In this document: positions 14,203 to 63,198 of the stretch, in pieces | Position numbering within the stretch: the stretch's first letter is position 1 | Layout of the letters: each line of letters opens with the position of its first letter | Source of the DNA: Candidatus Gottesmanbacteria bacterium | Lineage (GTDB): Bacteria > Patescibacteriota > Microgenomatia > UBA10105 > UBA927 | Direction: 5' to 3' | Assembly: GCA_030679255.1 (NCBI GenBank) | Contig: JAUXTO010000019.1 | Span: forward strand, 1,699 to 65,698 | DNA length: 64,000 nt | Position numbers and translations under genes: made by a program | The notes under the pieces: model-generated | What the model saw: the letters and a program-made list of their open reading frames with translations, nothing else | What the model was told of the DNA's origin: nothing | Database searches by the model: none

Positions 14203-15756
14203 TTACTTTCGTATGAGTAATCCCCCTATCGTAGGGCTAGGCAGAAAGTGGGCAGCAATATAGGCTTGATCTACGGGCAAAAGCGTCGTCACGCGTTTCA
14301 CTCCCCCTTCAAAAATATACTTCGTGTTTGTTTTTTGTAGCGCTTCAATAAGCGCGGGCAGGGGGCGGGACAAGTACGGTGCTGATTGCCCAAAGGGCGT
14401 ACAGCAGACCACGTACGGATGCTTATAGTAGAGGGTTTCTCCGGTCAGATCAAGGATGTATTCTGTGGTGGGGATCGTTTTGTAAAGCATCGTCAATTGT
14501 TTGATCGTATCGGCATTGGTCCAACCGCGTTTGGGACTATTAACCGCCACAAAAACCTGCATGAGCCGGATCGAACCGAGGATAAACAGTGCTAAAAAAA
14601 CTCCGGTCGGGAGGAGATTAGCATGGTTTTTCGATAGCTCCACACTTCTGCGCCAAAGCATATCCACCGCATCGGCCGCGTAAAACGCGATGAATACAAC
14701 GATGGGGATGAGGTACTGCGTGTGTTTAAGCGGGACGATCTGGACGTAAAAAATGACATAAACGAAAAACGTTGAGGCGATCAAAAACTCTGACCAAGAC
14801 CTTCCTGGAGTAACGAGCCGGTAAAGTCCGACGAAAATAGCGGTAAGCCACATGGCGTGATTGGTGACCAGTCCCGCGTTCCATCCTGCCGTCCCATAGA
14901 ACGTGACGTTGGGATAGAAAAACAAATCCGGCATCATGATGAAGGTTTGACTGATTTTGTTGGCCTCAAGACCAAGCTTCGTGAGTGAGTATATTACCTG
15001 ATCAATATTGCCAAGGGTCAGCGTCCAGAGGGCAAATATAGATATAGGTAAAAACATTCCGGCAAGAAGATGCGCGAGCCCTTTGAAAGATTCCCGGAAT
15101 TCTAACTTCTTCCCCGCCTGCCGGACGGACAGGAATTCCGGGAATCGGATAGCACGAAGCAACTCTATCCCCACCGCCACCCCCACCTGCGGCAGAGTTT
15201 TGGGAAGGATGAGCAGGGATATGCCATAGAAAAAACCAGCGACCATCCCGCAAGACACTCTCTTGCAGCCTCGCAAGAGCATGTCTTGCGAGGCTAAGAC
15301 GTGAAAAACCATTCCGAGCATCGCGAACAAGACGGCCAAAGTATCCGGCCGGATTTCCAGGAATTTATCAAACGGCATGGGAAGAAATGCAAGGATCACG
15401 CCGGCCACGATCGCAGTCCACGACCGACGCATGAGCCAAAAGAGAAGCATCGTCACCCCGACCAATAAGACAAATATACCAAATTGAACTATTCTCGCCG
15501 CAAAAATTGGCGCGATCCCGCCTCCGAAGGCAAAAAGCGGCATGAGAAAAAGATGAAAACCCGGCGGAAAGAAAAAAAGGAAATCCACATAGGGCCGGCG
15601 GCCGGAAAACATCTGAAACGCCCACGACAAATGCGCAAATTCATCGACATCAAAATAGCGTGTCATGCCAAGCTGGAAGTGCCAATAAAGAAGAATAGAC
15701 AATAAACAAAAAGCAATAAACGAGAGAATAACTGAAATGAACTGACGTACATTCAT
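14203..15756 (-). CDS. GT-C fold membrane glycosyltransferase (ArnT/PMT-like). Start trimmed to an ATG overlapping the upstream stop (ATGA).
   Basis: FDVDEFAHL DE motif near the N-terminus, many TM segments. Paralog of 51263..53122. Carries an in-frame palindrome (ASQDMLLRG). Confidence 0.55.
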   Translation of the reverse strand: MNVRQFISVILSFIAFCLLSILLYWHFQLGMTRYFDVDEFAHLSWAFQMFSGRRPYVDFLFFFPPGFHLFLMPLFAFGGGIAPIFAARIVQFGIFVLLVGVTMLLFWLMRRSWTAIVAGVILAFLPMPFDKFLEIRPDTLAVLFAMLGMVFHVLASQDMLLRGCKRVSCGMVAGFFYGISLLILPKTLPQVGVAVGIELLRAIRFPEFLSVRQAGKKLEFRESFKGLAHLLAGMFLPISIFALWTLTLGNIDQVIYSLTKLGLEANKISQTFIMMPDLFFYPNVTFYGTAGWNAGLVTNHAMWLTAIFVGLYRLVTPGRSWSEFLIASTFFVYVIFYVQIVPLKHTQYLIPIVVFIAFYAADAVDMLWRRSVELSKNHANLLPTGVFLALFILGSIRLMQVFVAVNSPKRGWTNADTIKQLTMLYKTIPTTEYILDLTGETLYYKHPYVVCCTPFGQSAPYLSRPLPALIEALQKTNTKYIFEGGVKRVTTLLPVDQAYIAAHFLPSPTIGGLLIRK

Positions 15757-16439
15757 AAGAAAAATCGTATCATGTCGACGATTGTTTGAACGACGGTACG
15801 CCAACTGTTGCCTCCACCAACTTCATTATCGGAGCGTGCACGGTGAGCGATGGGAATTTCTGTGACCGAAAAGCCCAACCGTTTTGTCCGGATGACGAGC
15901 TCTGCATCGACGAACGCGGAAGAAGATGACAGATGCAGAGAGGTCAGAACAGACCGGCGAAGGAGACGTACCGAATTAACATCATGGAGTGTGACACCGA
16001 ACAACCATCGGAGCAATGTGTTATAAATCCACGAGGAAAAAAGTCTGTTAGTCGGATCGTGGCGTTTGACCCGCCAGCCCAAAATCATATCATTGTTTCC
16101 AATGTGCGGTATCAATTTTTGCACTTCCTTCGCCCCGATTTGATAATCCCCGGGGATCGTAAAGAGCCACTCATATTGGCCTGCAAAATACAGTTCCTTT
16201 ATCGTCCTGCCATACCCCTGATTCGTCCGATGGGTGATGACACGGATATTTTTATATTTCTTCATGAGATTGACAAGGCCAGGCCCTGTCCTATCGTGGG
16301 ATCCGTCATCCGTGACGATTATTTCAAATTTCTTTGCTACCCGCCGGCCCACCGCAACGGCTTCCGCAACAACTTTTTCTATCGTCGCTTCATCGTTATA
16401 CGCCGGGATGAGAAGGGAAAGAGAAGAAAGCTTGATCAT
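15753..16439 (-). CDS. GT2 polyprenyl-phosphate sugar synthase-like (DPM1/GtrB type)
   Basis: LLIPAYNDEATIEKVV...IIVTDDGSHDRT...HRTNQGYGRT. Start trimmed to ATG 16439. Confidence 0.65.
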   Translation of the reverse strand: MIKLSSLSLLIPAYNDEATIEKVVAEAVAVGRRVAKKFEIIVTDDGSHDRTGPGLVNLMKKYKNIRVITHRTNQGYGRTIKELYFAGQYEWLFTIPGDYQIGAKEVQKLIPHIGNNDMILGWRVKRHDPTNRLFSSWIYNTLLRWLFGVTLHDVNSVRLLRRSVLTSLHLSSSSAFVDAELVIRTKRLGFSVTEIPIAHRARSDNEVGGGNSWRTVVQTIVDMIRFFL

Positions 16440-19738: not shown

Positions 19739-19759
19739 CCGTTTCATTAGAATGATGGA

Positions 19760-21472
19760 ATGGAATGGATGATAGTTTTAATAGTTTCCGCGGGCTTAAC
19801 ACTTATCAATAGCGCGCATGTCATCATCCAGTGGACCCTCAATAAACCCGGGGAAACATTTACCGGCATTGCCCACTCATTCGCCGATTATTTTCTCTAC
19901 GTGGGAGCGATGGCCCAGGGAGCCGCAGGACGGTGGATTTGGATGGAGAATCTCTTCACTAATGAGCCGACAAACCTAACGTGGTACTACTGGTTTTACG
20001 TAAGCCTTGGCCACATCGGTAGTTGGGGTCGTCTCTCCCCGTTTGCCACCTACAACGTGAGCCTCTTTCTTTTCGTTATCGCACTTTGCCTCGTCTGGTA
20101 TAAGCTCACGAAACTTCTCTATCCCACAAATACCTTCCTCCGGCTGACCACCTGGCTCCTAATCCTCACATCGACGAATTTTATTAGCTTCGCAAGGCCT
20201 GGCCTTGCGAAGCTAGGTATATTGGGTTTTTCTCAAATGGAACTTCTTGGTCAATTTTGGTTCTCGCCTGCTCCGGTGTTTAGTCGGCTCGGCGGGGTCC
20301 CCTACCATGTAGTGCAGTCCATCTTGTTTATCCTCCTTGCAATCACTTTTTCCCATCTCCTTGCCTCGAAATCAATTACTCGGGATTATAGTGGGTCACA
20401 TGGTAACATGTTAGCATGGTTACAAAATAAAAAATTACGCTCTTTTCTTTCATTGGTCATTCTGGCTGCCATCGCAGCCAGTGCCAATCCTGTCCAAATG
20501 CTCGTATTTGGCGTGGCGGCGCTTATCACCACAGCGGTCATGACCAATGCCGCGATCTACAAAAAAATTGCGCTGCTGGTGTGTCTTTTCATTGCCGCAG
20601 GGGCCGGAGCATGGTTAACGCAGATGGAATTTTCCCGCCAGGCAGTATTTCTCGCGGCCCGCAGTTGGGAACTCGTGCAACAGGTCCGTAACAACCCATC
20701 GATCCTTATTCTTTCCATAGGTCCAGTACTACTCTTTATCCCATTCGGCATGCAAAAAGTATTCAAAGAAAAAAATCCATTACACATCCTCTTTGTGATC
20801 TGGGGACTCCTCTCTTTTGCATTATTTCTCTCTCCCATCCCCCGACTTCTTGCCCTCTCTCCGGTCCGGTTCCTCCACCCGGTGCCCTACGCGGCGGCGC
20901 TCGCCATCCTCGGGGTGGAAGGATTGGTGCAGTTAGCCGGCTTGCTTCATCGGAGATTAAAAAATAAAGTAACACTCACCACTATCCGCGTGGCATTACT
21001 ACTTGCCTATCTCATCCTCACCATTCCCGCGATCTCCCGCCAATTTATCGACCGCATCACCCCGGCCCGTAATCCGCAACTCCTCATGGACACCATCTAC
21101 AACCACGTCCCCGCCCCCATCGCCGACGCCCTCACCTGGCTCAGAGTGACAGGGCCTGGCCCTGTCATAGAGCGTCCGGTCGTGCTTGTTGATCCGGCTA
21201 TCCCCATAGAAGTGCTCGTGCCAGTATTCACCGGAAAAATCTCCTTCTCCGGCCACCCCATCCATACGCTCTACCCCGATGTGAAAGAAGCCAAACGGCA
21301 GAAGTTTTTCGGAGGGAAAATGAGCGAGACTGAAGCGAATCAATTCTTAAAAGATCACCGGATAGGATATATTATTTCCAAACCGATATCCCCCACTCTG
21401 GCGGACTATTCAAAATTTGTTACAATGGTTTTTCAAAACGATGTAATCGCGATATTCAAAACAATGAAATGA
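19760..21472 (+). CDS. Polytopic membrane protein; family X paralog 2. Contains an in-frame REP palindrome.
   Basis: FADYFLYVGAMAQGAAGRW...TNEP. REP encodes SFARPGLAKL. Confidence 0.45.
   Translation: MEWMIVLIVSAGLTLINSAHVIIQWTLNKPGETFTGIAHSFADYFLYVGAMAQGAAGRWIWMENLFTNEPTNLTWYYWFYVSLGHIGSWGRLSPFATYNVSLFLFVIALCLVWYKLTKLLYPTNTFLRLTTWLLILTSTNFISFARPGLAKLGILGFSQMELLGQFWFSPAPVFSRLGGVPYHVVQSILFILLAITFSHLLASKSITRDYSGSHGNMLAWLQNKKLRSFLSLVILAAIAASANPVQMLVFGVAALITTAVMTNAAIYKKIALLVCLFIAAGAGAWLTQMEFSRQAVFLAARSWELVQQVRNNPSILILSIGPVLLFIPFGMQKVFKEKNPLHILFVIWGLLSFALFLSPIPRLLALSPVRFLHPVPYAAALAILGVEGLVQLAGLLHRRLKNKVTLTTIRVALLLAYLILTIPAISRQFIDRITPARNPQLLMDTIYNHVPAPIADALTWLRVTGPGPVIERPVVLVDPAIPIEVLVPVFTGKISFSGHPIHTLYPDVKEAKRQKFFGGKMSETEANQFLKDHRIGYIISKPISPTLADYSKFVTMVFQNDVIAIFKTMK
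20186..20214. repeat. REP-A, 29-nt perfect palindrome AGCTTCGCAAGGCC-T-GGCCTTGCGAAGCT, inside a CDS
   Basis: Exact palindrome seen directly. Confidence 0.9.
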
Positions 21473-35896: not shown

Positions 35897-35925
35897 AGCT
35901 TCGCAAGGCCAGGCCTTGCGAAGCT
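35897..35925. repeat. REP-A palindrome (centre A), 26 nt upstream of the RAYT gene
   Basis: agcttcgcaaggccaggccttgcgaagct. Confidence 0.9.
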
Positions 35926-35950
35926 AGAAATTCTATGATAGGTTGATGGT

Positions 35951-36667
35951 ATGCCAGCAAAAAATCGAACCAAACAATATGAGGAAGACGCCCGGTACCA
36001 TCTCTACAACCGAGGCGTGGATAAGCAAAAAATTTTTCGGGATCGTCAGGATCATAGTGTATTTCTCTCCTACCTCAAAACGTATTTAGAACCCAAGGAT
36101 GAAATCACTCTTCGGGCGACCATTATGGATGAAACTGCTTCCTGGAGGGCAAAAGGCCAAGCGATAAAGTTGCTTAGGCTAAATAATTTCTATGACAATC
36201 TCACCCTGCTTTCCTATTGTCTTATGCCCAATCATTTTCATTTTCTCGTGCATCAAAGAGATGAGGATGGCATAGACCGATTCGTCAATTCCCTGGGTAC
36301 ACGCTACACGATGTATTTCAACAAAAAATACAAACGCGTTGGTCCATTGTTTCAAGGAGTCTATAAAGCAGTACTTGTAAAAACCGATGACCAGCTTCTC
36401 TACCTCTCGAGATACATTCACCGAAACCCACTCGGATTAGATAAATCGAAAATATTAGCTTCGCAAGGCCTGGCCTTGCGAAGCTGGGAGTATAGTTCGT
36501 ATAAGGAATATTTGGCATTACGACAGACCAAATGGGTGAATCGAAAGGAAATACTCACTCAATTCGGAAAAAAAGGAACGACATCATATCAGTCGTTCGT
36601 TGAGGGATTTGATGAAAATGAAAACGCAGCCTATATTCTCCATGATACAGCTATCGACGTTGATTGA
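35951..36667 (+). CDS. IS200-like Y1/HUH transposase of the REP-associated (RAYT, COG1943) type
   Basis: YHLYNRGVDKQKIF; LLSYCLMPNHFHFLV (HuH); GPLFQGVYKAVLV; YLSRYIHRNPL (catalytic Tyr region); WEYSSY. One REP-A copy is inserted in-frame (ILASQGLALRS). Confidence 0.8.
   Translation: MPAKNRTKQYEEDARYHLYNRGVDKQKIFRDRQDHSVFLSYLKTYLEPKDEITLRATIMDETASWRAKGQAIKLLRLNNFYDNLTLLSYCLMPNHFHFLVHQRDEDGIDRFVNSLGTRYTMYFNKKYKRVGPLFQGVYKAVLVKTDDQLLYLSRYIHRNPLGLDKSKILASQGLALRSWEYSSYKEYLALRQTKWVNRKEILTQFGKKGTTSYQSFVEGFDENENAAYILHDTAIDVD
36457..36485. repeat. REP-A palindrome inside the RAYT coding sequence
   Basis: Exact palindrome. Confidence 0.9.
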
Positions 36668-36685
36668 CGTAATATTAGAAAAAAG

Positions 36686-38920
36686 CTAAATAGCTAGCTT
36701 CGCAAGGCCTGGCCTTGCGAAGCTAAAGATAATGACAAGTATGGTCAATATGCTTATTGCGGCGCCCCAAAGGACGATCGTTGGGCGGTAGGAAAAGACG
36801 ATCGTGTGGGTGCCCTTCGGGAGATAGAGCGTCCGGAAGGCGGCGTTGCTTTCAAAAATCGGAGTGCTTTTGCCGTCAACCGTTGCCTTCCATCCCGGAT
36901 ACATAACTTCGCTTGTGGCAAGAAACGCGTTACAGGGAGTAGCCGCGGTCAGTGATATTTTTCCATATCCGTAGGAATTGACAGTGACCGTTCCTTTAGT
37001 GTCCGCCGGACAATCCGGATTGAATCCCGATACATCCACTCGAGTCCCGTCCACGATGATTGTCGTTTTCGGGTCCACGCTCCCACGTTTGATTGCTGAT
37101 AATACCGCTTCCCTATTAGGTTCTTTTTGCATCTTCGTTGCGATAAAAAAGCGAGGGCTTACATTTTTATTTTCATACAACCTCCATCCGCGATTCTTAT
37201 TTTCTCTCACTAACTCAAATTGTTTCGTTGAAATATGTTTGATGGCATCACTCGCTATCGGCACGAGAATGTATTTAATGTTGAGATAATTTAAGTACGG
37301 TGATGTGATAGCACGAAACGGCGGGGTGGACTCGCTGTAGGAAAGCACGTCGGTAAATTTGTACCCGTTGGCGGCAAGGAGAAATTCGTACATATTGCGA
37401 AGTGGTGGCGTATCGTAACCGGATACGGACTGAATTTTATGCGCAATCGGCGCGTTAAACTCGAGGACGTCCCGCAGGGGATCGCCGTGATAAAAATTCG
37501 GGAGAAAACGATAGAGACTTTTGTCATTGATAAACGCGGAAACTAATGCGGTATCCTCGCTTTTTTCCGGAATGGGAACCAATGAAAGGTGGCGGCGGGC
37601 AAACGGAACGAGATCAAGGAGGAGTAAACCTACAACAATCACCTGCAATATTTTTGATTTGACCATGCTCAATCCAATTCCAAATAATACACTTGCCGAC
37701 AGCACAAAAAGCACGATGTGCCGAGCCGGAATACGGATTTGGCTGTAGAGAGGCATCCACGAACGAACCCAAGAAAAAAGATCGAGGGGCGCGTTCTGCC
37801 CCAACCACATCCATATCCCAAAAATACCGACGAGGACAAACGCCGGAATTTCCCACGATGTTTTCTTTTTCACGACCCACGAGGCGACCGCTAGAAGTGC
37901 AAAGAGAAGCGATACTTTTCCAAAGTACCCCACGTGCTCAAATCCGAAGCCCGAGTCCGGCAGACGCGAGTAAAAATAAAATGGATCTATAAATTCAAGC
38001 AGGTGTCCGACTGTCGGCGTCCCAAGTTGGGCCCAACTATCCGGAAACGAAAACGTCCGGATGCTATGGGCTATGAATTGGGCGTTGGGGAGAAGTTGGA
38101 TTACTGCCAGACCAAATCCGATTAATATTGCAGCTCCGACACGAACCATTGGTTGGAAAATAATAGATAGGTTAAGAGTTGTCATCCCCGTGCCTGTAGG
38201 GGATCCAGTTTTTACTCTGGATTCCCGCGTACGCGGGAATGACTGAAAAATATTATAGCATTGATAAATCAACATCATGATAAACACTCCTTCCAGCGTA
38301 AACACTGCAACCATCGGATGACCAGCCAATAGCTGTATGGCCAACGCCACCCCGGCAAACGCGATGTTTTTTCTGCTGATAGCTGATAGCTGACCCGCTT
38401 CGCCAAAACAGCGAGGCGAGCAGCTGAAAGCTAAAATCACCCACGGCATCCACGCCGATGCAGCAATGATATCGATGTGTCCGGCTGGAATGCGGGCCAC
38501 AAAGTACGCGGACAATCCGAAGGCGACTCCCGCCCCCCACGCGGCAATTTTTGACATTTGACCTTTGATATTTGACATTGCGCGAAGCGCGCAGTACATC
38601 CCGGACATCGCGATAAACAGATGCAGGGCAATGTACCAGGAAATAGCAGCATTGGTGGGCAACAATACAAATAAAATATTCGGGAGATACCAAAAGGGAA
38701 TTTGCGGATGCTCAAGATATGGCTGACCGCCGAAAATGTACGGATTCCACCACGGAATAGTTCCCAGTTTAAGCGACTCCCCCAAAAACTGCCGCTGCCA
38801 ATAATGGTACCGCCAGATATCCGGTCCAAATAATATTTTTCCCTCCGGTGGCCATAGAACTCCCCAAAACACCACGAGAACAAGGATGGCATAGGCCAAA
38901 AATGGAAAAAACTTTTTCAT
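36686..38920 (-). CDS. YfhO-family membrane glycosyltransferase, paralog A
   Basis: WWNPYIFGGQPY...SAWMPWV...C-terminal YPGWKATVDGK..AFR..LPKGTHTIVFSYRP. Carries in-frame MITE-C, Elem-F, an SSR and a terminal REP. Confidence 0.7.
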   Translation of the reverse strand: MKKFFPFLAYAILVLVVFWGVLWPPEGKILFGPDIWRYHYWQRQFLGESLKLGTIPWWNPYIFGGQPYLEHPQIPFWYLPNILFVLLPTNAAISWYIALHLFIAMSGMYCALRAMSNIKGQMSKIAAWGAGVAFGLSAYFVARIPAGHIDIIAASAWMPWVILAFSCSPRCFGEAGQLSAISRKNIAFAGVALAIQLLAGHPMVAVFTLEGVFIMMLIYQCYNIFQSFPRTRESRVKTGSPTGTGMTTLNLSIIFQPMVRVGAAILIGFGLAVIQLLPNAQFIAHSIRTFSFPDSWAQLGTPTVGHLLEFIDPFYFYSRLPDSGFGFEHVGYFGKVSLLFALLAVASWVVKKKTSWEIPAFVLVGIFGIWMWLGQNAPLDLFSWVRSWMPLYSQIRIPARHIVLFVLSASVLFGIGLSMVKSKILQVIVVGLLLLDLVPFARRHLSLVPIPEKSEDTALVSAFINDKSLYRFLPNFYHGDPLRDVLEFNAPIAHKIQSVSGYDTPPLRNMYEFLLAANGYKFTDVLSYSESTPPFRAITSPYLNYLNIKYILVPIASDAIKHISTKQFELVRENKNRGWRLYENKNVSPRFFIATKMQKEPNREAVLSAIKRGSVDPKTTIIVDGTRVDVSGFNPDCPADTKGTVTVNSYGYGKISLTAATPCNAFLATSEVMYPGWKATVDGKSTPIFESNAAFRTLYLPKGTHTIVFSYRPTIVLWGAAISILTILVIIFSFARPGLAKLAI
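36696..36724. repeat. REP-A palindrome forming the 3' end (FARPGLAKLAI-stop) of YfhO paralog A
   Basis: Exact palindrome. Confidence 0.9.
38181..38243. repeat. MITE-C element in-frame within YfhO A (adds SFPRTRESRVKTGSPTGTGMTT)
   Basis: gtcatccccgtgcctgtaggggatcc agtttttactct ggattcccgcgtacgcgggaatgac. Confidence 0.75.
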
Positions 38921-40026
38921 GATTTTGTCTGGATAGTTCCGAGTACTGCAAGAAGAGCCTCATAGCTTGCCCCGCGTACATCGATCCATTTCGCGTTGAT
39001 CGACTGGGCAAGACCATTGTCATCATCGCTGTTGCCCAAGACGACCACCTTGTCAAATTCAGTCATTTTTTTACCAAGCGAAAAGAGCGCGTCGGTCACC
39101 ATGGCCGGAGAAGGTTTACGCTTCGTCGTCTTTTTGACAAAGGATGTTTTCCAGGCGATCTCAGGGTGGGATCCTACAAACTCGGCATCCACATCCGGAC
39201 AATACTGCCAAGAGTCGATTTTAATTCCCTGTTTTTTGAGTAAATCATTGACTGCCTCATTAACCTCATCCACTTTTTTCTCATCAAAGTATCCCCGCGC
39301 GACACCGGATTGATTGCTGACGACTATCTTCGTTGTTTTATATTTCGTCTGCATGTAGGAGAGGAAGCTCACAACCGGCATGTTAAGGGTAATTTTTTTC
39401 TTCCAATCTTCTGTTCGGCCTAAAAAATCGTCGTTTGTGATGAGCGTTCCGTCGCGGTCAAGAACAACCAATAATCGTTTTGAGGGGATCTTCTGTTGGA
39501 TATAATCGATGACTTCCGTCGTCGAAAGCTTCGGGTCATCGGTATAGGCCATTGTGCCGCCAACGGCTTTTATTGCTTCACGCTCACTGGTAATCCCCGG
39601 CGTTTGTTTGCCGATAAAATCCGGACCTTTCATATACATCGAGGGCTTGAGCGCGTTGATCACGTCTACGCCGAGTTTAACGTCCGTAACAACAACGTAA
39701 TCTACCATCCGCAGATTGGCAATCATGTACGCGCGTAATGTATCAGGAAATATCGGCCGCCCCGCGCCTTTCCGGCCCTCTACAAACCGGTCGCTCGTCA
39801 CAGAAACGACAAGTACGTCGCAGAGTTTTTTAGCCGACTCAAAGTGTTTGACGTGGCCGGGATGCAGAAGATCAAATCCCCCGTGGCAAAGCCCGACCGT
39901 TTTCCCCTCCTGACGAAGCCGACGGATGACCGATGCTGCGGCGGCAAGCGAAATAATTTTCCCGGACGTATATATTTTTGTCGATGAGATCTGCATCATA
40001 AATTTATCATGGTACGCCCTGATCAT
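38917..40026 (-). CDS. Bifunctional nucleotidyltransferase (HldE/RfaE domain II-like) fused to a HAD phosphatase (GmhB-like)
   Basis: GLCHGGFDLLHPGHVKHF (HxGH cytidylyl/adenylyltransferase) plus VVLDRDGTLI (HAD motif I). Start trimmed to an ATG overlapping the stop of YfhO B. Confidence 0.6.
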   Translation of the reverse strand: MIRAYHDKFMMQISSTKIYTSGKIISLAAAASVIRRLRQEGKTVGLCHGGFDLLHPGHVKHFESAKKLCDVLVVSVTSDRFVEGRKGAGRPIFPDTLRAYMIANLRMVDYVVVTDVKLGVDVINALKPSMYMKGPDFIGKQTPGITSEREAIKAVGGTMAYTDDPKLSTTEVIDYIQQKIPSKRLLVVLDRDGTLITNDDFLGRTEDWKKKITLNMPVVSFLSYMQTKYKTTKIVVSNQSGVARGYFDEKKVDEVNEAVNDLLKKQGIKIDSWQYCPDVDAEFVGSHPEIAWKTSFVKKTTKRKPSPAMVTDALFSLGKKMTEFDKVVVLGNSDDDNGLAQSINAKWIDVRGASYEALLAVLGTIQTKS

Positions 40027-42296
40027 ACCCGCTTTTTCATCCAAATCAAACAGCCAAGAAGGGTCATGAGACTCACAAAGATTCCCATGATAAATACCGT
40101 TGGCCGGTAAACCATGACCATGGTGTGTTTCCCTTTGGGAATGACGACCGTCCGGAACGCAAGGTTGCCTTCAATGAGTTTCGCCGGTTTCCCGTCAATG
40201 GTAGCCTGCCAGCCCGGATACATCACCTCACTGGTTGCGAGCATGGCGTTACACGGCGTATCGGTCTTCAAAATTATTTTGTTCATGGAATAGGACGCGA
40301 CCGTAACCGGCGGGAGCGGTTGACTACCGCAATTGAACGCAACATCAGAGGGAACATCCTTTTGTTGCACTAAAACGACTTTTCCCGGATCATGCTCCCC
40401 TGCCCGGATGGCACGGGCAATGGACGGGCGATCAGGGAGTCCAACAATCTGTGAAGCAAGAAAAAATCTGGGTAACACGGTGGTGTTTTCATACAGACGG
40501 AAATAATCTTTTTTGTTTTCCTCCATAACTAATTTATACTTCGGCGAAGATCCGGCAACCGAGTCAAACCAGGACGGGACAAAAATATATTTGACGTTGA
40601 GAAAATCCACATACCGCGAAGACGGTTTTAAATACGGAATCTGTACATCAGTTTGCTGGACGTCCGGGTTTTCGACCCCTGCAACGGCGGCCCCAAATTC
40701 ATAGTAGTTGCGCAGGATAGCCGGGTCATACCCCGATGCACTGTAGAGCCGATAACCCATCGCAGCGTCAAAATCCAGGGCATCGCGCGTCCCCATGCCG
40801 ACGTTAAAGTTGGGAAGAATCCGCGCCATCCCCAAATTCTTTTGAAGGTAGCTCACTAATTCTTGATTATGCCGCGTCGCCGGATCGGGCCGCAGGACAA
40901 CAAAGTTTTTTGCAAACCAGAGCATATCAACAGTGATAAACAATGAAATTATGAAAACAGCTAGCTTCGCAAGGCCAGGCCTTGCGAAGCTAAGATTCTT
41001 CAAATAATTCAAGCCGATGCCGGCGAGGGCGCTCATGCCGAAGACAAAGAGAATAAGATGGCGGGAAGGGATTCGGAGATATTTATATATTGGAACGGTG
41101 TCCCAGAGAATTTTATTGAGGTCGATGGGCGCGTTCCAGCCGAGGGAAACCCACAGGCCGAAGATTGCAATACACACCATTGCACCGCCAAATACTAATA
41201 CTTGGCGGTCGTGAGTGAACAATTTCGTGACGGGGTTACTTCGTTTAATAATCATTTGAAGGACATGAATGACGAATGCAATGATAGAAATCAATGCAAG
41301 CAATAGTCCCCCCTTGCCCATATATGCCGCCATTTCGCCGAAATTGGGACTTGGACCTTTATAACTCCATGGGAATCCGAGGACAAACGGATCAATAAGT
41401 TGCTTGAGATTGCCGATCGTATACGATCCAAACACTGCCCATGAGTAGGGCAATGGATAGGTCCGGATGCTTGCGCGAAAAAATTCCTGACCGGGAAGAA
41501 TCTGGATAGCTGATAAGCCAAGCCCGATAATTACCGAGAGTCCTGCATATAAAAAAGGTTTCACACTTCTTGCATTGATGCATTGACCCACGGACACCAT
41601 GCCGACGGCAATGACGGTCATCATCGCCATCGTCTGATACCCCGCCAAAATCTGCATGGCAAATACTATCCCGGCAATAACGCAATTTGTTTTCCATTTG
41701 ACATTTGACTTTTGACATTTGACATTTGCCCATACCACCCACGGCATCCAGGAGGCCGAAAGGATAAGCTCTATATGCCCTTCCCAAATCCGCCCCATAA
41801 AAAAGCCGGAAAGGCCAAAGACTAATCCTGCGATCCAGGGACCAATAGGATGGAGGACATAAGACATAGGACGTAGGATAGAACTGTTTTTGATTCCATT
41901 GGAAATTGGTAATTGGTCATTGGTCATTACACTTCTGATCAGGATGTACATCCCCAGCATCGCCCAAAAGATGTGCAGCGGAATGATCCATGAGTAGACG
42001 AAGCGGTATGGCATCAGGGCAAAGAGCCAATTGACGGGATACCAAAATGCGAGCGACGGGTTAGCGATCAACGGCTCGCCGGAAAACAGGTACGGATTCC
42101 ACCACGGAAACTCCCCACGGGCAAGAGCGTCACCAAATAATTGCCGGAAAAAATGATACGACCGATGGATGTCATCGCCAAATACGAGCGTCCCCGGCGC
42201 AGGCCACAGGATAGGCCAAAAAACAAAGAGCACGATGGCGAGATAAAAAATGGCAGCGACAATGTACGGATTTTTCAGTACTCTCACGATTCTCAT
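40023..42296 (-). CDS. YfhO-family membrane glycosyltransferase, paralog B
   Basis: WWNPYLFSGEP; SASWMPWVV; C-terminal YPGWQATIDGK. Contains in-frame REP-A and SSR tracts. Confidence 0.7.
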   Translation of the reverse strand: MRIVRVLKNPYIVAAIFYLAIVLFVFWPILWPAPGTLVFGDDIHRSYHFFRQLFGDALARGEFPWWNPYLFSGEPLIANPSLAFWYPVNWLFALMPYRFVYSWIIPLHIFWAMLGMYILIRSVMTNDQLPISNGIKNSSILRPMSYVLHPIGPWIAGLVFGLSGFFMGRIWEGHIELILSASWMPWVVWANVKCQKSNVKWKTNCVIAGIVFAMQILAGYQTMAMMTVIAVGMVSVGQCINARSVKPFLYAGLSVIIGLGLSAIQILPGQEFFRASIRTYPLPYSWAVFGSYTIGNLKQLIDPFVLGFPWSYKGPSPNFGEMAAYMGKGGLLLALISIIAFVIHVLQMIIKRSNPVTKLFTHDRQVLVFGGAMVCIAIFGLWVSLGWNAPIDLNKILWDTVPIYKYLRIPSRHLILFVFGMSALAGIGLNYLKNLSFARPGLAKLAVFIISLFITVDMLWFAKNFVVLRPDPATRHNQELVSYLQKNLGMARILPNFNVGMGTRDALDFDAAMGYRLYSASGYDPAILRNYYEFGAAVAGVENPDVQQTDVQIPYLKPSSRYVDFLNVKYIFVPSWFDSVAGSSPKYKLVMEENKKDYFRLYENTTVLPRFFLASQIVGLPDRPSIARAIRAGEHDPGKVVLVQQKDVPSDVAFNCGSQPLPPVTVASYSMNKIILKTDTPCNAMLATSEVMYPGWQATIDGKPAKLIEGNLAFRTVVIPKGKHTMVMVYRPTVFIMGIFVSLMTLLGCLIWMKKRV
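40963..40991. repeat. REP-A palindrome in-frame in YfhO B (SFARPGLAKL)
   Basis: agcttcgcaaggccaggccttgcgaagct. Confidence 0.9.
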
Positions 42297-42381
42297 TGTA
42301 TCGCCCAGTTCTCCTTTTGCAACAGAGAATGAACAACGCGCGAGATCTTGCTATTGTCAATAGAAACAAAACGCTCTATTC

Positions 42382-43179
42382 TTGTGTCCAATGTTTACCG
42401 TAACTCCACGGACCATCACCGTGCGCAACGCATCGCTTACCTATGCCGCTATCCCCTGGGATTGCCAGTATCTGGACAATACCACCATACAGATCAAGAA
42501 GTTTACGTTCACGACCAAACAGGAAGCCAAACATCTTCTGTTTACGATTACGAAACAACTAAAACTTGCTAAAGGCGATCTGCTGTTTCTCAAAACTTCC
42601 CCGCTTGATATCAAACATTTACATATCCTTACTTCCTTGGGCTTTTACGTTATTGAGGAAGCCGTTGAGATTTCCTTTGACCTTTCCGACTGGAATCCAA
42701 ACGCATTTTCTCAACATGCCATGCGGGGGTATCGACTCGTTAGCGCGACAAAGTCGCATCTCCCGTCCATCAAAAAAATTGCAGGATCAGCCTTCACGCA
42801 TGACCGGTATCATCTGGATCCAAATATTCCGGCGCGTGGGGCGAATAAGCGGTTCATCGGATGGGTAGAAACGAGCATGAAGAGCACTGACGAAGTGTTT
42901 GCGTTTGTTGATGCCAACAGTGTTGTTATCGGATTTTTTATCATCGCGAAAAACCCGGATGGTACAAACCTTCGCCTTGCGGCAATTGATCCATCGCTCG
43001 TGGGAAAAGGATTAGGGAAACTTCTGTACTATTCGATGTTTTCTATTCTAAAAAAACGCGGCGACACATCCATACAAACACAGATATCGCTCAATAACAC
43101 AGCGGTACTTAACGTCTACACCTATCTCGTCCACCCGAAGGTTACCCGCGTGGAAATGGTGTTACACTTTATCGTATGA
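42382..43179 (+). CDS. WecD-like two-domain N-acetyltransferase (GNAT)
   Basis: RFIGWVE.. C-terminal GNAT-like segment. Adjacent to a GT2 gene and close to the aminotransferase. Confidence 0.5.
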   Translation: MCPMFTVTPRTITVRNASLTYAAIPWDCQYLDNTTIQIKKFTFTTKQEAKHLLFTITKQLKLAKGDLLFLKTSPLDIKHLHILTSLGFYVIEEAVEISFDLSDWNPNAFSQHAMRGYRLVSATKSHLPSIKKIAGSAFTHDRYHLDPNIPARGANKRFIGWVETSMKSTDEVFAFVDANSVVIGFFIIAKNPDGTNLRLAAIDPSLVGKGLGKLLYYSMFSILKKRGDTSIQTQISLNNTAVLNVYTYLVHPKVTRVEMVLHFIV

Positions 43180-43916
43180 AACGAATTTCATTCGTCATCC
43201 CTCTCTATAATGCCGCCGCGTCCGTGCGGGAACTGACCACGAGGATCCTATCCCCTTCGATCCCGGGAAATAAAGAAATTATTTATACGAACGACGGCTC
43301 GACGGATGACACTGACCGCATCGTCCGAGCTTTAGCTACCAAAAACAAATCCATCATATATATCCAACTGGCTGGAAACTTTGGCCAGCATAATGCAATT
43401 CTCACCGGACTCAAATTTGCACGGGGAAACATTGTGGTTTGTTTAGACGATGATCTGCAAACGCCGCCGGAGGAAGCAGTCATTTTGCTTGATGCATTGA
43501 CCGATCGGGATGTCGACGTCGTGTATGGACAGTATGAAACCAATGAAGATCCGGTCCGCAGGATCGGTACGAGACTTCATAACCTGATGGCGCAGGTATT
43601 CGGGAAGCCCAAAGACGTGACGCTGACGAGCTTCTTTTGTATGACGAAATCTGTAGCCCACACAGTAAGCCAATACAAAGGAACGCTTGTATACCTCCCT
43701 GGGCTCGTCTTCCGTGCGACAAAAAAAATAACCTCCGTCCCCGTTCGTCACGTTCCCCGCAAATACGGCCGCTCCGGGTATACCTTTTTGGGTTTATTGA
43801 AATTGTGGCTGATCGGAGTCTTGGTGTACCTGCGTTTAGCAGATATATTTACGTACGGGAAAGCGACGACGGTTGCGGACTCGGTCAACGCACGCGTCAC
43901 ATCCAACCACCGTTAA
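43176..43916 (+). CDS. GT2 polyprenyl-phosphate glycosyltransferase, GtrB/ArnC-like
   Basis: ISFVIPLYNAAASV...IYTNDGSTDDT...GNFGQHNAILTG. Confidence 0.65.
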   Translation: MKRISFVIPLYNAAASVRELTTRILSPSIPGNKEIIYTNDGSTDDTDRIVRALATKNKSIIYIQLAGNFGQHNAILTGLKFARGNIVVCLDDDLQTPPEEAVILLDALTDRDVDVVYGQYETNEDPVRRIGTRLHNLMAQVFGKPKDVTLTSFFCMTKSVAHTVSQYKGTLVYLPGLVFRATKKITSVPVRHVPRKYGRSGYTFLGLLKLWLIGVLVYLRLADIFTYGKATTVADSVNARVTSNHR

Positions 43917-47527: not shown

Positions 47528-47541
47528 AATCCAAGAGCTGG

Positions 47542-49548
47542 TTATAGCGATCGGTATACCGTCACAAAGGAATTCTTATACACCTCTGTGAGGAACGGAT
47601 AGATTTTGACAAGACCCCCTACTCCCCTTGCCTCGCCGCCCCGCTTCGCCGAATCGAGGCGAGCAGGCGGGCCATCCTCTTTCTCCTGCGGACCGAAAAA
47701 TATCCAATGAAGATTTTCGCGGGTCATCCATGCTTTGGCGTCATCCGGTTTCATCCGGCCGGAAAAAAACTCTTTGACTTTTACTTCTTTTGCTTCAGCG
47801 TCGACCGTGTTGGCGTGCCCCACATAGACCGTATTGCCGGCATAGACCGGGATATAGTTGCCCGCGGTCGTCTCAGAAAGAATAATTGTTTTGCGGCTGG
47901 GCGTCGCGTCCTGGATATAACGGATAGCGGCAATGAAATCTTTCAGCGGATACATGACGTAGCTCCCCGTCGGCACGAGCGGGTAAGTCGCCCGCATCTT
48001 GTGATCGATGAAGTCCTTTTGCCAGAGGAATGAGGAAGACATCACCCCGAAACCCACACCTATCAATATCGTAATCAATATACACACCATTAAGCGCAGC
48101 ATACTCCTGAGGAAAATTCCAAATGATCCAAACATTTGGTATTTGGTGCTTGATGCTTGGTGCTTGTTTGGTATTTGGTGCTTGATGCTTGGTGCTTGTT
48201 GATAATTCCAATGAAATGCAAACCAACAGAGATACGCCGTCAGGACCCCCAGCGGGACGTGCGGGATCATTTCGCTAAAGCGAAGGGGCGACTGGGCCGG
48301 GATAAATTTGAAAATAAAAAGGAGAAGCGCCCACGCGAGGACCCAAGCCGCGGCAGGCCACATCCTGCGGTCTCTCATTTTTAGCGCGACCAGAAGTCCG
48401 ATGATCCCCAAGGGAAGAATGGGCCCGACTGCCTTCAAGTATTCGATGTAATCAAACGGCAGGGGCTTCACGATGTCAAACTCGACGAGCCGCTTCCATG
48501 GATAAAACGAGGTCATGAGGGAGAGATAGATGAGAGAAGGAAGACCCAAAATCAAGACTACCACCCTTCCTGTCATCCTCGGGCTTGACCCGAGGATCCA
48601 GTTTCTTAAAAGCGAGATTCCAGCTCGGAGGCCGGAACGACAAAAATATGCCCAGCTTCGCAAGGCCTGGCCTTGCGAAGCTAACAATTTTAGATTATAT
48701 GATAGTTCAAGGCATGTTAGGGCGCCAATGGTGACAATAATAAACAATAAGCCCGGAGGGAATATGATGCCTTCGGCGAATGCGATCACTCCGAGAAATA
48801 CCCAATTGCCCGGCTTTTTCATGGTCGCCTCATCGGAGAGGGCCATAATCAAAAATATAATCAGTGCTTGCCCCACGAGAAGATGCGGGATGAAGGTGAT
48901 GCGCTGCAGACTGTCCATGACGGACCACCACGGCATGTAGCCGCCGAAACGCCAGTTGGTGATATTGGCAATCGTTGCGGGGACGACTTGATTGTTAATG
49001 ACAGCAACAATCTTGGGCCAGGTGGAGGCGGTGACAGCAAGGAGAAAGGCAAGAATCGGGACGTAGGACGTAGGATCTAGGACGTAGGGAAAAAATGCAA
49101 GACGTTCCGATTTATTCTTATGTCCTATGTCATCACTCATACGTCCTTGTTCAAACGTTTTCTTACAAAACTGGACGATCATGACGAGGAGAAATCCTCC
49201 GAAGACGATGCGCGCGACGTGGTAGACGTCCGAAGCCCGATGCCAGGGCACACGAACCCACGCCCCAAGCCACCCCAGGAAAAGATAAAAAATGTGGATG
49301 AATGATCCCTGATGCGGCTCGCTCGTGTATTGCTCGCGGACCACGACATTTCCCTCTATCCCCTGCCGGATACGGGAGAGATAAAAATTAAAGTCCGTCG
49401 GAAAATTATGGATGAGTTCGAATTCACGGTTAGATTGCAGACGGTTGCTATGGGCAATCTCATACGCCGCCGGGGCGAGGGAGCCAAGAAGAAACAAAAT
49501 AATAAGGAAACCAAATACTTTATCTCTCATGTCCCCCATTCTACGCAA
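47542..49548 (-). CDS. Polytopic membrane protein, family X paralog 3. Contains REP-A, MITE-C, Elem-F and tandem-repeat insertions in-frame.
   Basis: HNFPTDFNFYLSRIRQGIEGN..TSEP motif. Inserted peptides LLASQGQALRSW, RSGLRAGISLLRNWILGSSPRMTG. Confidence 0.45.
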   Translation of the reverse strand: MRRMGDMRDKVFGFLIILFLLGSLAPAAYEIAHSNRLQSNREFELIHNFPTDFNFYLSRIRQGIEGNVVVREQYTSEPHQGSFIHIFYLFLGWLGAWVRVPWHRASDVYHVARIVFGGFLLVMIVQFCKKTFEQGRMSDDIGHKNKSERLAFFPYVLDPTSYVPILAFLLAVTASTWPKIVAVINNQVVPATIANITNWRFGGYMPWWSVMDSLQRITFIPHLLVGQALIIFLIMALSDEATMKKPGNWVFLGVIAFAEGIIFPPGLLFIIVTIGALTCLELSYNLKLLASQGQALRSWAYFCRSGLRAGISLLRNWILGSSPRMTGRVVVLILGLPSLIYLSLMTSFYPWKRLVEFDIVKPLPFDYIEYLKAVGPILPLGIIGLLVALKMRDRRMWPAAAWVLAWALLLFIFKFIPAQSPLRFSEMIPHVPLGVLTAYLCWFAFHWNYQQAPSIKHQIPNKHQASSTKYQMFGSFGIFLRSMLRLMVCILITILIGVGFGVMSSSFLWQKDFIDHKMRATYPLVPTGSYVMYPLKDFIAAIRYIQDATPSRKTIILSETTAGNYIPVYAGNTVYVGHANTVDAEAKEVKVKEFFSGRMKPDDAKAWMTRENLHWIFFGPQEKEDGPPARLDSAKRGGEARGVGGLVKIYPFLTEVYKNSFVTVYRSL
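48572..48638. repeat. MITE-C element (second hairpin degenerate) in-frame
   Basis: gtcatcctcgggcttgacccgaggatcc agtttcttaaaagcgag attccagctcggagg. Confidence 0.65.
48654..48682. repeat. REP-A palindrome in-frame
   Basis: Exact palindrome. Confidence 0.9.
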
Positions 49549-56004: not shown

Positions 56005-57921
56005 ATGAAGTTTCCGAAGTGGTTTTGGGTGGGAATACTGATTGCGCTTTTTGTGCGTCTCGCGCTCATCCCCAATCCTGGCTTTGAGGCGGATGTGTCG
56101 TTTTGGAAGGCGTGGGGACTGGCGGTCGTTGACAAAGGTGTCATTGAGGGCCTGAAGGTGAGCAACAGTAACTACCCTACCCCATTTATGTATACGCTCG
56201 GCGTCATGGTATGGGTGTATAAACTTTTTGCCGATCCCCATAACTTTAATGAATTTTGGAATAACAGCAATCTTCTCTTCTTGACCATCTCGAAAATGCT
56301 GCCGATCATGGCAGATTTTGGAATTGCCGGAATCATTCTTTGGATAAGCACCAAATACCAAGCATCAAGCATCAAACAAGCACCAAATTCCAAGCATCAA
56401 ACGTTTGGAACATTGGGATTTAGAATTTTGAATTTGTTTGGAATTTGGAATTTGGAATTTGGAGCTTCTCGTGTCGGTTTTTTATTTGCCCTTGTCTACC
56501 TCCTCTCCCCCATCTCCCTCATCGACGGGGCGTGGTGGGGGCAAGTCGATAGCGTCGGGGTATTTATATTTCTTGCGGCTGTGGTCGCCGTCCTCAAAAG
56601 GTGGCCTGTGCTTGCCGGAGTGATCTACATGGTGGGCGTCATGACCAAGCTCCAAAATATGATCTACGGCCCGGTGTTTTTTCTGTTCGTTTGGCAGTCG
56701 CTTGGATACCAGGGATTGGTCCGCGCTATAGCCGGCAGCACACTCGGTTTTTTCGGCCTGAATATCGAATTTTTCCTCTCGCGAAACATGGCCAGGGTGA
56801 TGGCAAGCCTCACCGAAAACTATGACTACTTCCCTCTCATGAGCCTGAACGCCTACAACCTTTGGTGGATATTCTCCGGAGCCAAAGGCATGGCGATGAG
56901 TGATAAATTTTTGAGCGTGGGGATCATGAATGCGAAGACGGTAGGTCTGGTATTGTTTTCGGGGGTGTATTTGTTTGCGGTACTCCGGCAGACTTTTACA
57001 AGGCACTTCCTTGCAGCTTCGCAAGACATGCTCTTGCGAGGATTCCTCGAATCCCTGATCCTCGTCAATGGGGCATTTTTTCTTTTCCAAACACAGTCGC
57101 ATGACCGGTATGCGTTTCCGCTGTCCGTGTTTCTTCTGCTGTGGGCACCGTTTTTCATTTCGCAAGACATGCTCTTGCGAGGCTACAAGAGCATGTCTTA
57201 TGGAATCAATATCCGTCTTTTTGCAATGTTCTATACACTTTTCACCATCTTTTATTTCTACAATCTCCATACAGCGCTCATCGTCAATTATCCTAATAAC
57301 GGAATCCCGGGGCTCACGCTTCTTACTCAGCCTTTTTTCACGATCATGACCTCCGTCGTGTTGTTGGGATTATTCGGCGTCATTCTTTGGCATTTTGCGC
57401 GACAATCCAGGCTCGCATTCTTTGTCTCCTGTCTCGTGTCTCTTGCCGCCTTGACTGCCCTCAACCTCCCCCTCATCACGAAAAAACCAGTATCGCTTAC
57501 TAAACTCACTCCCTACGTCGCCGAAGTAGGCTACGGAAAGCGGCAAACCGATATGCCCGTCAATGCATTTTTAGGCTACTCCAAACAATCATATCTCTCG
57601 GTGCAGTATGCGTTTTATCGGAGCGGTCTGGGCCTCCACTCACCGAGCTTTCTCAATTATGATATCGGCGGGCACTTCAAAACATTGATCACCGATTACG
57701 GGATTGACACAGAAGCAGGAGGAAAAGGATCGGCGGTCTTTGAAGTGTACGGCGATGATAGACTGTTATGGCGGTCGGAGAAAATCGGACGGTATGAAAA
57801 TCCGCGGCATGCGGAAGTGAACGTGACGGGAGTGCGGAAACTGGGACTCATCACGACGGATGCCGGGGACGGCCGTGACGATGATCATGTGGATTGGCTC
57901 CGGCCGATGCTGTGGCCATAA
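56005..57921 (+). CDS. GT-C-like polytopic membrane protein with two in-frame Pal-B palindromes and an in-frame simple-repeat insert
   Basis: ASQDMLLRG and ISQDMLLRG peptides encoded by CTCGCAAGACATGCTCTTGCGAGG; insert STKYQASSIKQAPNSKHQ..FGIWNLEFG. Confidence 0.45.
   Translation: MKFPKWFWVGILIALFVRLALIPNPGFEADVSFWKAWGLAVVDKGVIEGLKVSNSNYPTPFMYTLGVMVWVYKLFADPHNFNEFWNNSNLLFLTISKMLPIMADFGIAGIILWISTKYQASSIKQAPNSKHQTFGTLGFRILNLFGIWNLEFGASRVGFLFALVYLLSPISLIDGAWWGQVDSVGVFIFLAAVVAVLKRWPVLAGVIYMVGVMTKLQNMIYGPVFFLFVWQSLGYQGLVRAIAGSTLGFFGLNIEFFLSRNMARVMASLTENYDYFPLMSLNAYNLWWIFSGAKGMAMSDKFLSVGIMNAKTVGLVLFSGVYLFAVLRQTFTRHFLAASQDMLLRGFLESLILVNGAFFLFQTQSHDRYAFPLSVFLLLWAPFFISQDMLLRGYKSMSYGINIRLFAMFYTLFTIFYFYNLHTALIVNYPNNGIPGLTLLTQPFFTIMTSVVLLGLFGVILWHFARQSRLAFFVSCLVSLAALTALNLPLITKKPVSLTKLTPYVAEVGYGKRQTDMPVNAFLGYSKQSYLSVQYAFYRSGLGLHSPSFLNYDIGGHFKTLITDYGIDTEAGGKGSAVFEVYGDDRLLWRSEKIGRYENPRHAEVNVTGVRKLGLITTDAGDGRDDDHVDWLRPMLWP
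57015..57041. repeat. Pal-B palindrome (REP-A-related, different centre). Second copy at 57159..57182; third copy at 15269..15293.
   Basis: agcttcgcaagacatgctcttgcgagg. Confidence 0.8.
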
Positions 57922-58042
57922 AAGTCCGTAAAGTCAAAAAGTCCTTAAAGTCCGTAAAGTCAAAAAGTCCGTAAAGTCCGTAAAGTCCGTAAAGTATTTG
58001 ACTTTATAGACATTCGACTTTATAGACTTTCGACTCTAAGTT

Positions 58043-63169: not shown

Positions 63170-63198
63170 AGCTTCGCAAGGCATTGCCTTGTGAAGCT
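63170..63198. repeat. REP-A variant (agcttcgcaaggcattgccttgtgaagct), intergenic, preceded by GTAG
   Basis: Imperfect palindrome. Confidence 0.8.

Follow-up and report, generated by a model that had tools for sequence, protein, structure and literature searches.

A probable REPtron-like unit in Patescibacteria: a RAYT-type transposase gene with cognate perfect palindromes at its flanks, inside its reading frame, and in host genes

Introduction

REPtrons, in which a gene for a REP-associated tyrosine transposase (RAYT, gene rayt) is flanked by REPs (repetitive extragenic palindromes), are well described (PMC2817692; PMC8266576). Perfect palindromes are known among the REPs of the group 3 RAYT/TnpA_REP systems, e.g., Sm of Stenotrophomonas maltophilia and Mb of Marinomonas (PMC8266576, PMC2817692), and two features are specific for RAYTs, namely a conserved threonine near the N-terminus and the motif NP(L/V)(R/K)xG beside the tyrosine (Nunvar et al., 2010; PMC2817692). 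The pathway of REP dissemination has been stated to be unknown (PMC8266576). Here we describe a RAYT-like gene of the domesticated type and a 29-nt perfect palindrome in a 64,000-nt stretch of the genome of Candidatus Gottesmanbacteria, a tiny groundwater bacterium of the Patescibacteria (candidate phyla radiation, CPR). This whole stretch is called the window, and window counts refer to these 64 kb. The gene and the palindrome probably form a REPtron-like unit.

The TnpA_REP of Escherichia coli is a monomer. It requires both a bulge and a GTAG, its cleavage site is at CT, and its C-terminal tail is autoinhibitory (PMC3479197). Intragenic REPs, which are translated and supply TAG stop codons, have been published for Opitutus terrae, Rickettsia, and others, and are a minority elsewhere (PMC3733652); therefore, the view of REPs as intergenic, on which an initial annotation of the window had relied, is outdated. 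In R. conorii other genes have longer palindromic insertions (Rickettsia palindromic element, RPE-1), and REPs of the CGTC type, including RPE-4 and RPE-6, have no dedicated transposase (PMC3733652). Full-text literature searches, with subscription journals outside their coverage, yielded no mention of RAYTs in Patescibacteria or of cognate REPs inside a rayt reading frame.

The system described here shares several features with the group 3 REPtrons: a Y1/HUH transposase gene is flanked on both sides by a cognate short perfect palindrome, which is also found dispersed in the genome, several co-evolving transposase/palindrome pairs are present per genome, and inheritance is vertical and under purifying selection. 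It differs in the palindrome, which has a stem of 14-16 bp and a 1-nt loop instead of 5-8 bp and loops of 3-4 nt, and symmetric ends (YTAG...CTAR) instead of a one-sided GTAG head. It occurs as single copies, not as doublets or bacterial interspersed mosaic elements (BIMEs), and in low exact-copy numbers. Further differences are the presence of one or two cognate copies at conserved sites inside the transposase reading frame, the Patescibacteria host, and a protein that seems to lack the conserved threonine, does not have the (R/K)xG, and stays under the cut-off of the curated hidden Markov model (HMM).

The likeness to the TnpA_REP of E. coli (YafM; 4ER8) comprises the HUH and tyrosine active site and a C-terminal extension past the IS200 core, at a sequence identity of 13%. 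The REPs of E. coli are extragenic and number hundreds, and a REP inside yafM was not found reported in the literature examined. The insertion sequences (ISs) of the IS200/IS605 family (IS608, ISDra2) have hairpins on both sides and move single strands by "peel and paste", and their transposases have the fold and presumably the chemistry of the one described here. However, an IS TnpA has about 140 aa and is an obligate dimer, compared to 238 aa here, the IS ends are two different hairpins with guide tetranucleotides and not identical symmetric palindromes, and ISs are multi-copy and horizontally mobile, in contrast to a gene that is single-copy in the window and syntenic between species. Like intragenic REPs and RPEs (PMC3733652), the short palindromes are found in frame, are translated, and are tolerated in many unrelated proteins; unlike RPEs, they have 29-33 nt, are tied to a specific transposase, and are also present inside the gene of that transposase.

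Results

The Palindrome Flanks the Transposase Gene and Is Translated Within It

As proposed in the initial annotation, the palindrome AGCTTCGCAAGGCC-W-GGCCTTGCGAAGCT brackets the transposase gene and is present a third time inside it, with exact copies at 35897, 36457, and 36696. Four further dispersed copies had been listed; three of them are exact (20186, 40963, and 48654), which brings the number of exact window copies to six, and the seventh copy (63170) is degenerate, with 3 mismatches. The chance expectation of the pattern is 0 (no match in 100 dinucleotide-preserving shuffles of the window). The gene and the copies are the following (strand in brackets, with a dot where none is assigned):

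35951..36667 (+): gene of the RAYT-like Y1/HUH transposase, an intact open reading frame (ORF) of 238 aa with a C-terminal extension of about 80 aa
35896..35926 (.): upstream copy U, TAGCTTCGCAAGGCC-A-GGCCTTGCGAAGCTA, 55 to 25 nt 5' of the transposase ATG, intergenic
36457..36485 (+): intragenic copy at site I2, read in frame as (L)ASQGLALRS(W), transposase residues 169-179
36695..36725 (.): downstream copy D, 28 nt past the transposase stop; its minus strand encodes the C-terminal SFARPGLAKLAI of a YfhO-like ORF
20185..20215 (.): copy in the membrane-protein ORF 19760..21472 (+), 570 aa, translated as SFARPGLAKL
40962..40992 (.): copy in the YfhO-family ORF 40023..42296 (-), 757 aa, translated as SFARPGLAKL, between predicted membrane segments
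48654..48682 (.): copy in the ORF 47542..49548 (-), 668 aa, translated as LASQGQALRS; most homologues are without this segment
63170..63198 (.): degenerate copy, AGCTTCGCAAGGCATTGCCTTGTGAAGCT, 3 mismatches, intergenic, preceded by GT

The gene thus has a palindrome on both sides (-55 nt, +28 nt), as is typical for RAYT genes, and 4 further copies are found in the window. The in-frame reading of the copy at 36457 had been recognized correctly; this copy is translated as LASQGLALRSW and is located in the loop directly after the catalytic-Tyr motif, and the confidence of the AlphaFold2 (AF2) model is low there. The D copy (36696) provides the final 12 residues (SFARPGLAKLAI, followed by the stop) of the 744-aa YfhO-like ORF 36686..38920 (-).

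Cognate Palindromes Are Present at Conserved Sites in Related Transposase Genes

A total of 80 metagenome loci were fetched by protein motifs, and the sample is therefore unbiased for DNA; 72 family genes were scanned. A locus-specific repeated palindrome was found near 42 of the 72 genes, and 23 had at least one intragenic copy, at site I1 and/or site I2, with about 17 different sequences. Flanking copies only were present at 18-19 of the 42 palindrome-bearing genes, and no palindrome was detected for 29 of the 72. The sites are conserved, i.e., U is located at -32 to -75 nt, I1 at +140 to +182 nt, I2 at +435 to +506 nt, and D at the stop codon or just past it. In many loci the stretch between YIHxNP and YxYSSY, which corresponds to I2, is palindromic in DNA, but has another sequence, as in the following four:

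L089: ACCTGCAGGGCC-A-GGCCCTGCAGGT
L098: CCCTTTCGGGAG-T-CTCCCGAAAGG
L083: TGACAGGGTCTCGCCCTGTCA
L082: ACTTCAGGTTC-C-GAACTTGAAGT

Each of these internal palindromes recurs just 5' and just 3' of its gene, and several loci have a second intragenic copy about 150 nt past the gene start. The peptides encoded at the intragenic sites are wholly different by lineage (PAGPGPAG, PFRESPER, LTGSRPVT, TSGSELEV) and are read in different frames. As the peptides vary while the DNA palindrome matches the flanks, the conserved entity is the DNA palindrome and not the peptide. At one locus (L064), the sequence is ...CCTTTTGAAGCT in the flanks and ...CCTTACGAAGCT inside the gene, and the two differences remove a would-be in-frame TGA. 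The same sequence, which is represented from two sources (L048 and L064), contains two divergent RAYT paralogues within about 6 kb, on opposite strands. They are flanked by palindrome variants of their own (AGCTTCAAAAGGAA... and AGCTTCACAAGGCC...), and only one of them has an internal copy.

The expectation that the 11-aa insert would be absent elsewhere was not borne out. Homologues with as little as about 55% identity have ASQGxALRS[WY] as their consensus at I2, and diverged ones have a cognate palindrome of their own in the same place. Distant family members have a minimal loop, NPxxYxxWxYSS, at I2; therefore, I2 is an insertion in a deep sense, relative to those members only. In a rough neighbor-joining tree, one clade (L080, L089, L098, L094, L099, L082, L085) has site I2 in common, and the palindrome differs in every member, although all 3-4 copies per locus agree. 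The remaining carriers of I1 or I2 are dispersed over the tree.

The Protein Has the Fold of Y1/HUH Transposases

The assignment to the Y1/HUH transposases was corroborated. The Pfam profile Y1_Tnp (PF01797) matched with 36.6 bits, compared to a cut-off of 23, and residues 83-159 were aligned with profile positions 40-121. The predicted active site consists of the HUH motif His95-Phe-His97 (NHFHF) and the putative catalytic Tyr155 in RYIHRNP, and His95, His97, and Tyr155 are invariant in 117 homologues. An AF2 model, which was built from the homologue alignment, had a mean pLDDT of 86.5, with low confidence over the palindrome-encoded residues 161-180. The best PDB match of this model was 4ER8_A, the REP-associated transposase of E. 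coli with bound REP hairpin (E = 9.3e-6), followed by the transposases of ISDra2 (6e-4), IS608, and IS200. Neither the protein sequence nor a profile of 24 sequences gave a significant match in sequence-only searches of the PDB. A homologue with 66% identity carries the JGI name "REP element-mobilizing transposase RayT". After the tyrosine the window protein has NPLGLD, so that the NP[LIV] is retained, and the I2 palindrome falls exactly at the position of the NP(L/V)(R/K)xG motif. Only one such transposase gene is present in the window, and no tnpB was found with it; related genomes contain several divergent paralogues each.

The Gene and Its Palindromes Are Conserved Between Species

The species-representative genome JBBTWJ (contig 11) has the same gene context, i.e., PfkB, cytidine deaminase (cda), DUF2000, RAYT, and YfhO. 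A comparison of the two RAYT genes gave non-synonymous (dN) and synonymous (dS) divergences of 0.095 and 1.53, respectively, and a dN/dS of 0.06. The shared context, the saturated dS, and the low dN/dS argue for a long vertical residence and not for a recent transposition. A single copy or few divergent copies, vertical inheritance, and purifying selection represent the housekeeping-like behavior that characterizes RAYTs.

All 28 stem bases are identical in JBBTWJ at the three copies of the gene and at the orthologues of ORFs 19760 and 47542, whereas the DNA that flanks the orthologous palindrome copies is 71-83% identical. Of the pairs whose central base was compared individually, those of the I2 copy and of ORF 47542 differ in it and that of ORF 19760 does not. 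With the six exact copies of the window as the reference, at least 5 have an exact counterpart at the orthologous position of another species, and 6 of the 13 exact copies in JBBTWJ are located on the 48-kb contig that bears the transposase gene. Among the YfhO orthologues, which were retrieved by protein search, P0124 has an exact copy and P0122 a related variant at the palindrome site, while in P0125 and P0128 the center is changed and both arms retain their outer 11-12 bp.

Restriction of the palindrome to the window had been named as an outcome that would speak against the proposed system; instead, the exact palindrome was also found in about 20 Patescibacteria species genomes. The loci L001-L063 were fetched by an exact match to the palindrome. 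Several of these genomes are labeled "uncultured Gammaproteobacteria", Ignavibacteria, or Gracilibacteria, but the loci encode Gottesmanbacteria-like genes, and such labels may therefore be placeholders or binning errors. The palindrome was absent from the viral contig collection that was searched, and thus a phage origin is not supported.

The Repeat Unit Is a Symmetric Hairpin of About 33 nt

The statistics of the flanks and of the center are based on 85 exact copies, which come from the window and from related genomes and are non-redundant. Directly 5' of the 29-mer, 85% of them have a T and 14% a C, the position before it has T or C in 91%, and the 3' side mirrors this preference. The mirrored preference indicates a repeat unit of about 33 nt, YT-AGCT...AGCT-AR, so that the annotated 29-nt palindrome is indeed perfect, but shorter than the unit. 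The statement that most copies are preceded by TAG or GTAG has to be corrected, because the TAG consists of the flanking T and the first AG of the palindrome; a GTAG is present in the window only at 63170 and in 2 of the 85 copies. The flanks are thus symmetric and do not have the one-sided GTAG/CGTC head of classical REPs. The central base is A in 32 copies, T in 53, and G or C in none, which is the pattern expected from the inversion of one A:T pair and not from free point mutation. Its orientation has no bias relative to the sense strand (17 A versus 19 T in 36 copies internal to long ORFs).

As single-stranded DNA, the hairpin of the unit has a predicted stability of -17.5 kcal/mol (z = -7.9). 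A short palindrome (20-40 nt, here 29-33 nt) with a stable hairpin is a feature of classical REPs. Near-copies are less frequent than exact copies (19 versus 85), and several near-copies have compensated changes. The mismatches on the sense strand of the imperfect copies are G.U in 4 and A.C in 6 cases, which are too few copies for a test of selection at the RNA level. Inverted doublets (REPINs) or BIME clusters were found neither in the window nor in related genomes, and all copies are single units. An Rfam search at gathering thresholds found nothing in the window.

Unlike classical REPs, the palindrome is not extragenic: 4 of the 7 window copies are located in ORFs, and 36 of 86 non-redundant copies (42%) lie in the interior of ORFs of 150 aa or more, with 4 more forming C-terminal tails. 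The claim that no stop codon is present in any frame is true for the 29-mer; however, the usual 5' T creates a TAG in the third frame. Among the 36 internal copies, 24 are read in frame 0, 11 in frame 1, and only 1 in frame 2, the frame with the TAG.

Palindromes in Host Genes and Other Repeats of the Window

Homologues align across the palindrome sites, and therefore the host ORFs are single genes and not fused ORFs. In the YfhO family, a paralogue is missing 9-10 residues at the palindrome site and some orthologues have the exact peptide. In the family of ORF 19760, the exact peptide is present in the two closest homologues, decayed forms are present in others, and the loop of more distant members comprises 5 residues, compared to 22. 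In the family of ORF 47542, the segment was found only in the window protein and one 71%-identical homologue. Some of the seemingly empty orthologues hold decayed or variant palindromes of equal length.

Most palindrome copies of the window are hosted by a dense cluster of large, paralogous membrane proteins (about 19700-23200 and 36686-49548), which are probably envelope glycosylation genes. The ORFs 36686..38920 and 40023..42296, which are mutually 38% identical, match Pfam YfhO, and the ORFs 19760, 21469, 44634, and 47542 look similar.

A second palindrome family, AGC[CT]TCGCAAGA-(GCATG/CATGC)-TCTTGCGA[GA]GCT, is related to the main one, with an outer stem of the same type and a center of 5 nt. 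Its three copies (15267-15295, 57015-57043, and 57156-57185) are all located in ORFs, i.e., 14203..15804 (-) and 56005..57921 (+), the latter with an NPCBM domain. A transposase gene that matches this family was not found in the window. The perfect palindrome TGACAGGGCC-T-GGCCCTGTCA (21147-21167) is present inside ORF 19760..21472, which is also a host of the main palindrome. The family TGACAGGG...CCCTGTCA occurs in the flanks and in the interior of RAYT genes of other lineages (L083, L106, L129), and also in genomes that contain the main palindrome (L034, L055, L058, L059). Further perfect or near-perfect hairpins in ORFs are ATTCCCGCGTACGCGGGAAT (38221-38240), AGCCTTAAAAGGT-GAG-ACCTTTTAAGGCT (50089-50117), TCTGCCAAGTAT-C-ATACTTGGCAGA (58257-58281), and ATCCTCGGG-tcaag-CCCGAGGAT (about 48575-48600). 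Overall, the window contains 11 perfect hairpins with a stem of at least 10 bp, compared to a mean of about 0.35 in shuffles.

Inverted repeats built on GATTCCCGGAAT / ATTCCGGGAATC are found at 413-443 and 15089-15146; these motifs have 10 matches with at most 1 mismatch, versus 2.7 expected. Tandem repeats are located at 48135-48200 (32-nt unit, 2.1 copies, 100% identity, inside ORF 47542..49548), at 57921-57995 (9/26-nt unit AAAGTCCGT, 8.6 copies, between two ORFs), and at 56404-56463 (TTTGGAA, 8.9 copies).

Discussion

A RAYT-Type Gene and Its Cognate Palindrome

We assign a probability of roughly 0.7 to the interpretation that the window contains a REPtron-like unit of a large Patescibacteria family, which consists of a vertically inherited RAYT-type gene and a cognate REP-like perfect palindrome, with copies of identical DNA sequence at the flanks of the gene, inside the gene, and in host genes. 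The palindrome is presumably the element that is mobilized by the transposase.

Several points weigh against this interpretation. The RAYT equivalog of NCBIfam, NF047646 (REP_Tyr_transpos), matched with 36.2 bits and thus stayed under its cut-off of 80, and the (R/K)xG part of the NP(L/V)(R/K)xG motif is absent. The N-terminal motif YHLYNRG contains no threonine; the position of the RAYT-specific threonine in canonical RAYTs probably corresponds to Tyr19 here. The number of exact copies per related genome is just 4-13, compared to hundreds for classical REPs. The TnpA_REP of E. coli requires an asymmetric 5' GTAG and a bulged, imperfect hairpin, while the element described here is symmetric and perfect. 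The identity among the loci L001-L063 is partly given by construction, because they were fetched by exact matches. In the YfhO, 19760, and 47542 families, no pair of an empty and a filled site was found that is similar enough to delimit the mobile unit; the loops have diverged too far, and some "empty" orthologues contain decayed or variant palindromes, so that a unit of 30 or 33 nt is inferred. Lastly, gene conversion or selection at each site could yield the same pattern without the transposase. With respect to the RAYT label of the initial annotation, the match of the fold to 4ER8 and the bracketing by palindromes speak in its favor, whereas the curated model was missed and the two signature motifs are only partly present. 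Therefore, the protein is best described as RAYT-like, and it represents a distinct family by sequence.

A possible mechanism would be that the palindrome folds into a hairpin of 14-16 bp when it is single-stranded, that the transposase binds it and cuts at its foot, and that the unit is thereby moved or copied. With 30 or 33 nt, the unit would have a length divisible by three, and together with the lack of stops this would make insertions into surface or membrane loops tolerable. With less certainty, the identity of the copies to a family master might be kept by a transposase-dependent turnover, in which copies would be excised and re-inserted or would exchange strands at hairpins already present, preferentially near the gene. 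Such a turnover would explain why the central base flips and why flanking and internal copies change in concert. The flips, the concerted change across lineages, and the location of 6 of 13 JBBTWJ copies on the contig of the gene were counted in its favor. The internal copies may be tolerated by-products of the turnover, or they may have been co-opted to regulate the gene.

Alternative Explanations

Regulation leads to the most serious alternative, which we regard as possible, though clearly less probable, namely that the hairpins form a selected cis-regulatory circuit. The transposase, an RNase, or a host factor would bind or cut the hairpins close to the promoter, inside the coding region, and past the stop, which would keep the expression low, and I2 could part the catalytic core from an autoinhibitory-like C-terminal tail. 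The positions of U, I1, I2, and D, which are fixed over many lineages with different sequences, are in agreement with such a circuit, as is the observation that the internal copy is as near to the cognate sequence as coding permits. I2 is located at the boundary between the core and the C-terminal extension, and the E. coli enzyme is inhibited by its own C-terminal tail, truncation of which leads to hyperactivity (PMC3479197). However, with 18-19 flanked genes without an internal copy, about half of the palindrome-associated genes lack it, which argues against the internal copy being required, and 29 genes are without any detected palindrome. In addition, no T-run follows I2 on the sense strand, and the mismatches have no G.U bias (4 versus 6) that would suggest an RNA structure. 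The stronger claim that the cognate hairpins in the reading frame have a function in the system and are under selection for it, and are not tolerated passengers, appears doubtful to us. It would imply an enzyme that acts on its own gene, by self-binding or self-cleavage that limits or switches expression, and that is perhaps also made as a core enzyme without the C-terminal tail. If this were true, the peptide beside the catalytic tyrosine would be written by the DNA that is recognized, and the evolution of the recognition site and of the loop would be coupled.

An ordinary autonomous IS of the IS200/IS605 type, with the flanking hairpins as its ends and the solitary palindromes as footprints or derivatives that resemble MITEs (miniature transposable elements with inverted repeats), is improbable. 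The arrangement hairpin-gene-hairpin, the Pfam Y1_Tnp match, and the TnpAs of ISDra2, IS608, and IS200 as next structural matches would fit. But the window contains a single gene copy, the gene resides in the same chromosomal context in another species, with saturated dS and a dN/dS of 0.06, and the protein, with 238 aa and a C-terminal extension, matches TnpA_REP best. Moreover, the ends are identical symmetric palindromes, not distinct left-end and right-end hairpins, and tnpB is missing.

About as improbable, and if anything slightly more so, is that the palindromes serve the host as terminators, insulators, binding sites, or mRNA stabilizers, independent of the transposase, and that their presence at its gene is incidental. 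Classical REPs do have such roles (PMC3733652), and further unrelated palindromes are found inside ORFs of the window. The minus-strand U and I2 copies precede T-rich tails, with a terminator-like score, but the promoter and terminator scan around the gene gave only consensus-level matches and was not used as evidence. A host function is at odds with about 17 different palindromes, each of which accompanies its own transposase lineage and occupies the same four positions, with the 42% of copies in ORFs, where terminators or insulators would do harm, and with the lack of any Rfam match.

That selection maintains the peptide ASQGxALRS, which is indeed present in homologues down to about 55% identity, with palindromic DNA by accident and unrelated or chance-derived dispersed copies, can practically be dismissed, because other lineages have wholly different peptides at I2 with DNA that is still palindromic and equal to the flanks, all synonymous stem positions are identical between species in spite of the saturated dS, and the AF2 confidence is low at the segment.

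Implications for REPs and for the Patescibacteria

Parts of what might seem novel have been published before, i.e., translated REPs (PMC3733652) and perfect-palindrome REPs (PMC8266576). The new finding is a family-wide, position-conserved cognate palindrome inside the transposase gene, which co-varies with the flanking copies, in a phylum for which the searched literature does not mention the system. It bears on the spread of REPs and on the long persistence of RAYT genes as single genes with vertical inheritance. The family offers clean handles for this, i.e., a long, perfect, and symmetric hairpin as target and many related enzyme/hairpin pairs that differ in sequence, and the fixed intragenic copies, which change in concert with the flanks, record turnover at a defined site. 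The streamlined CPR genomes tolerate several palindrome families in coding sequence, which lengthen loops in membrane proteins of the envelope by 8-11 residues. Translated palindromes therefore matter for gene calling and for protein family alignments, and possibly also for surface variation.

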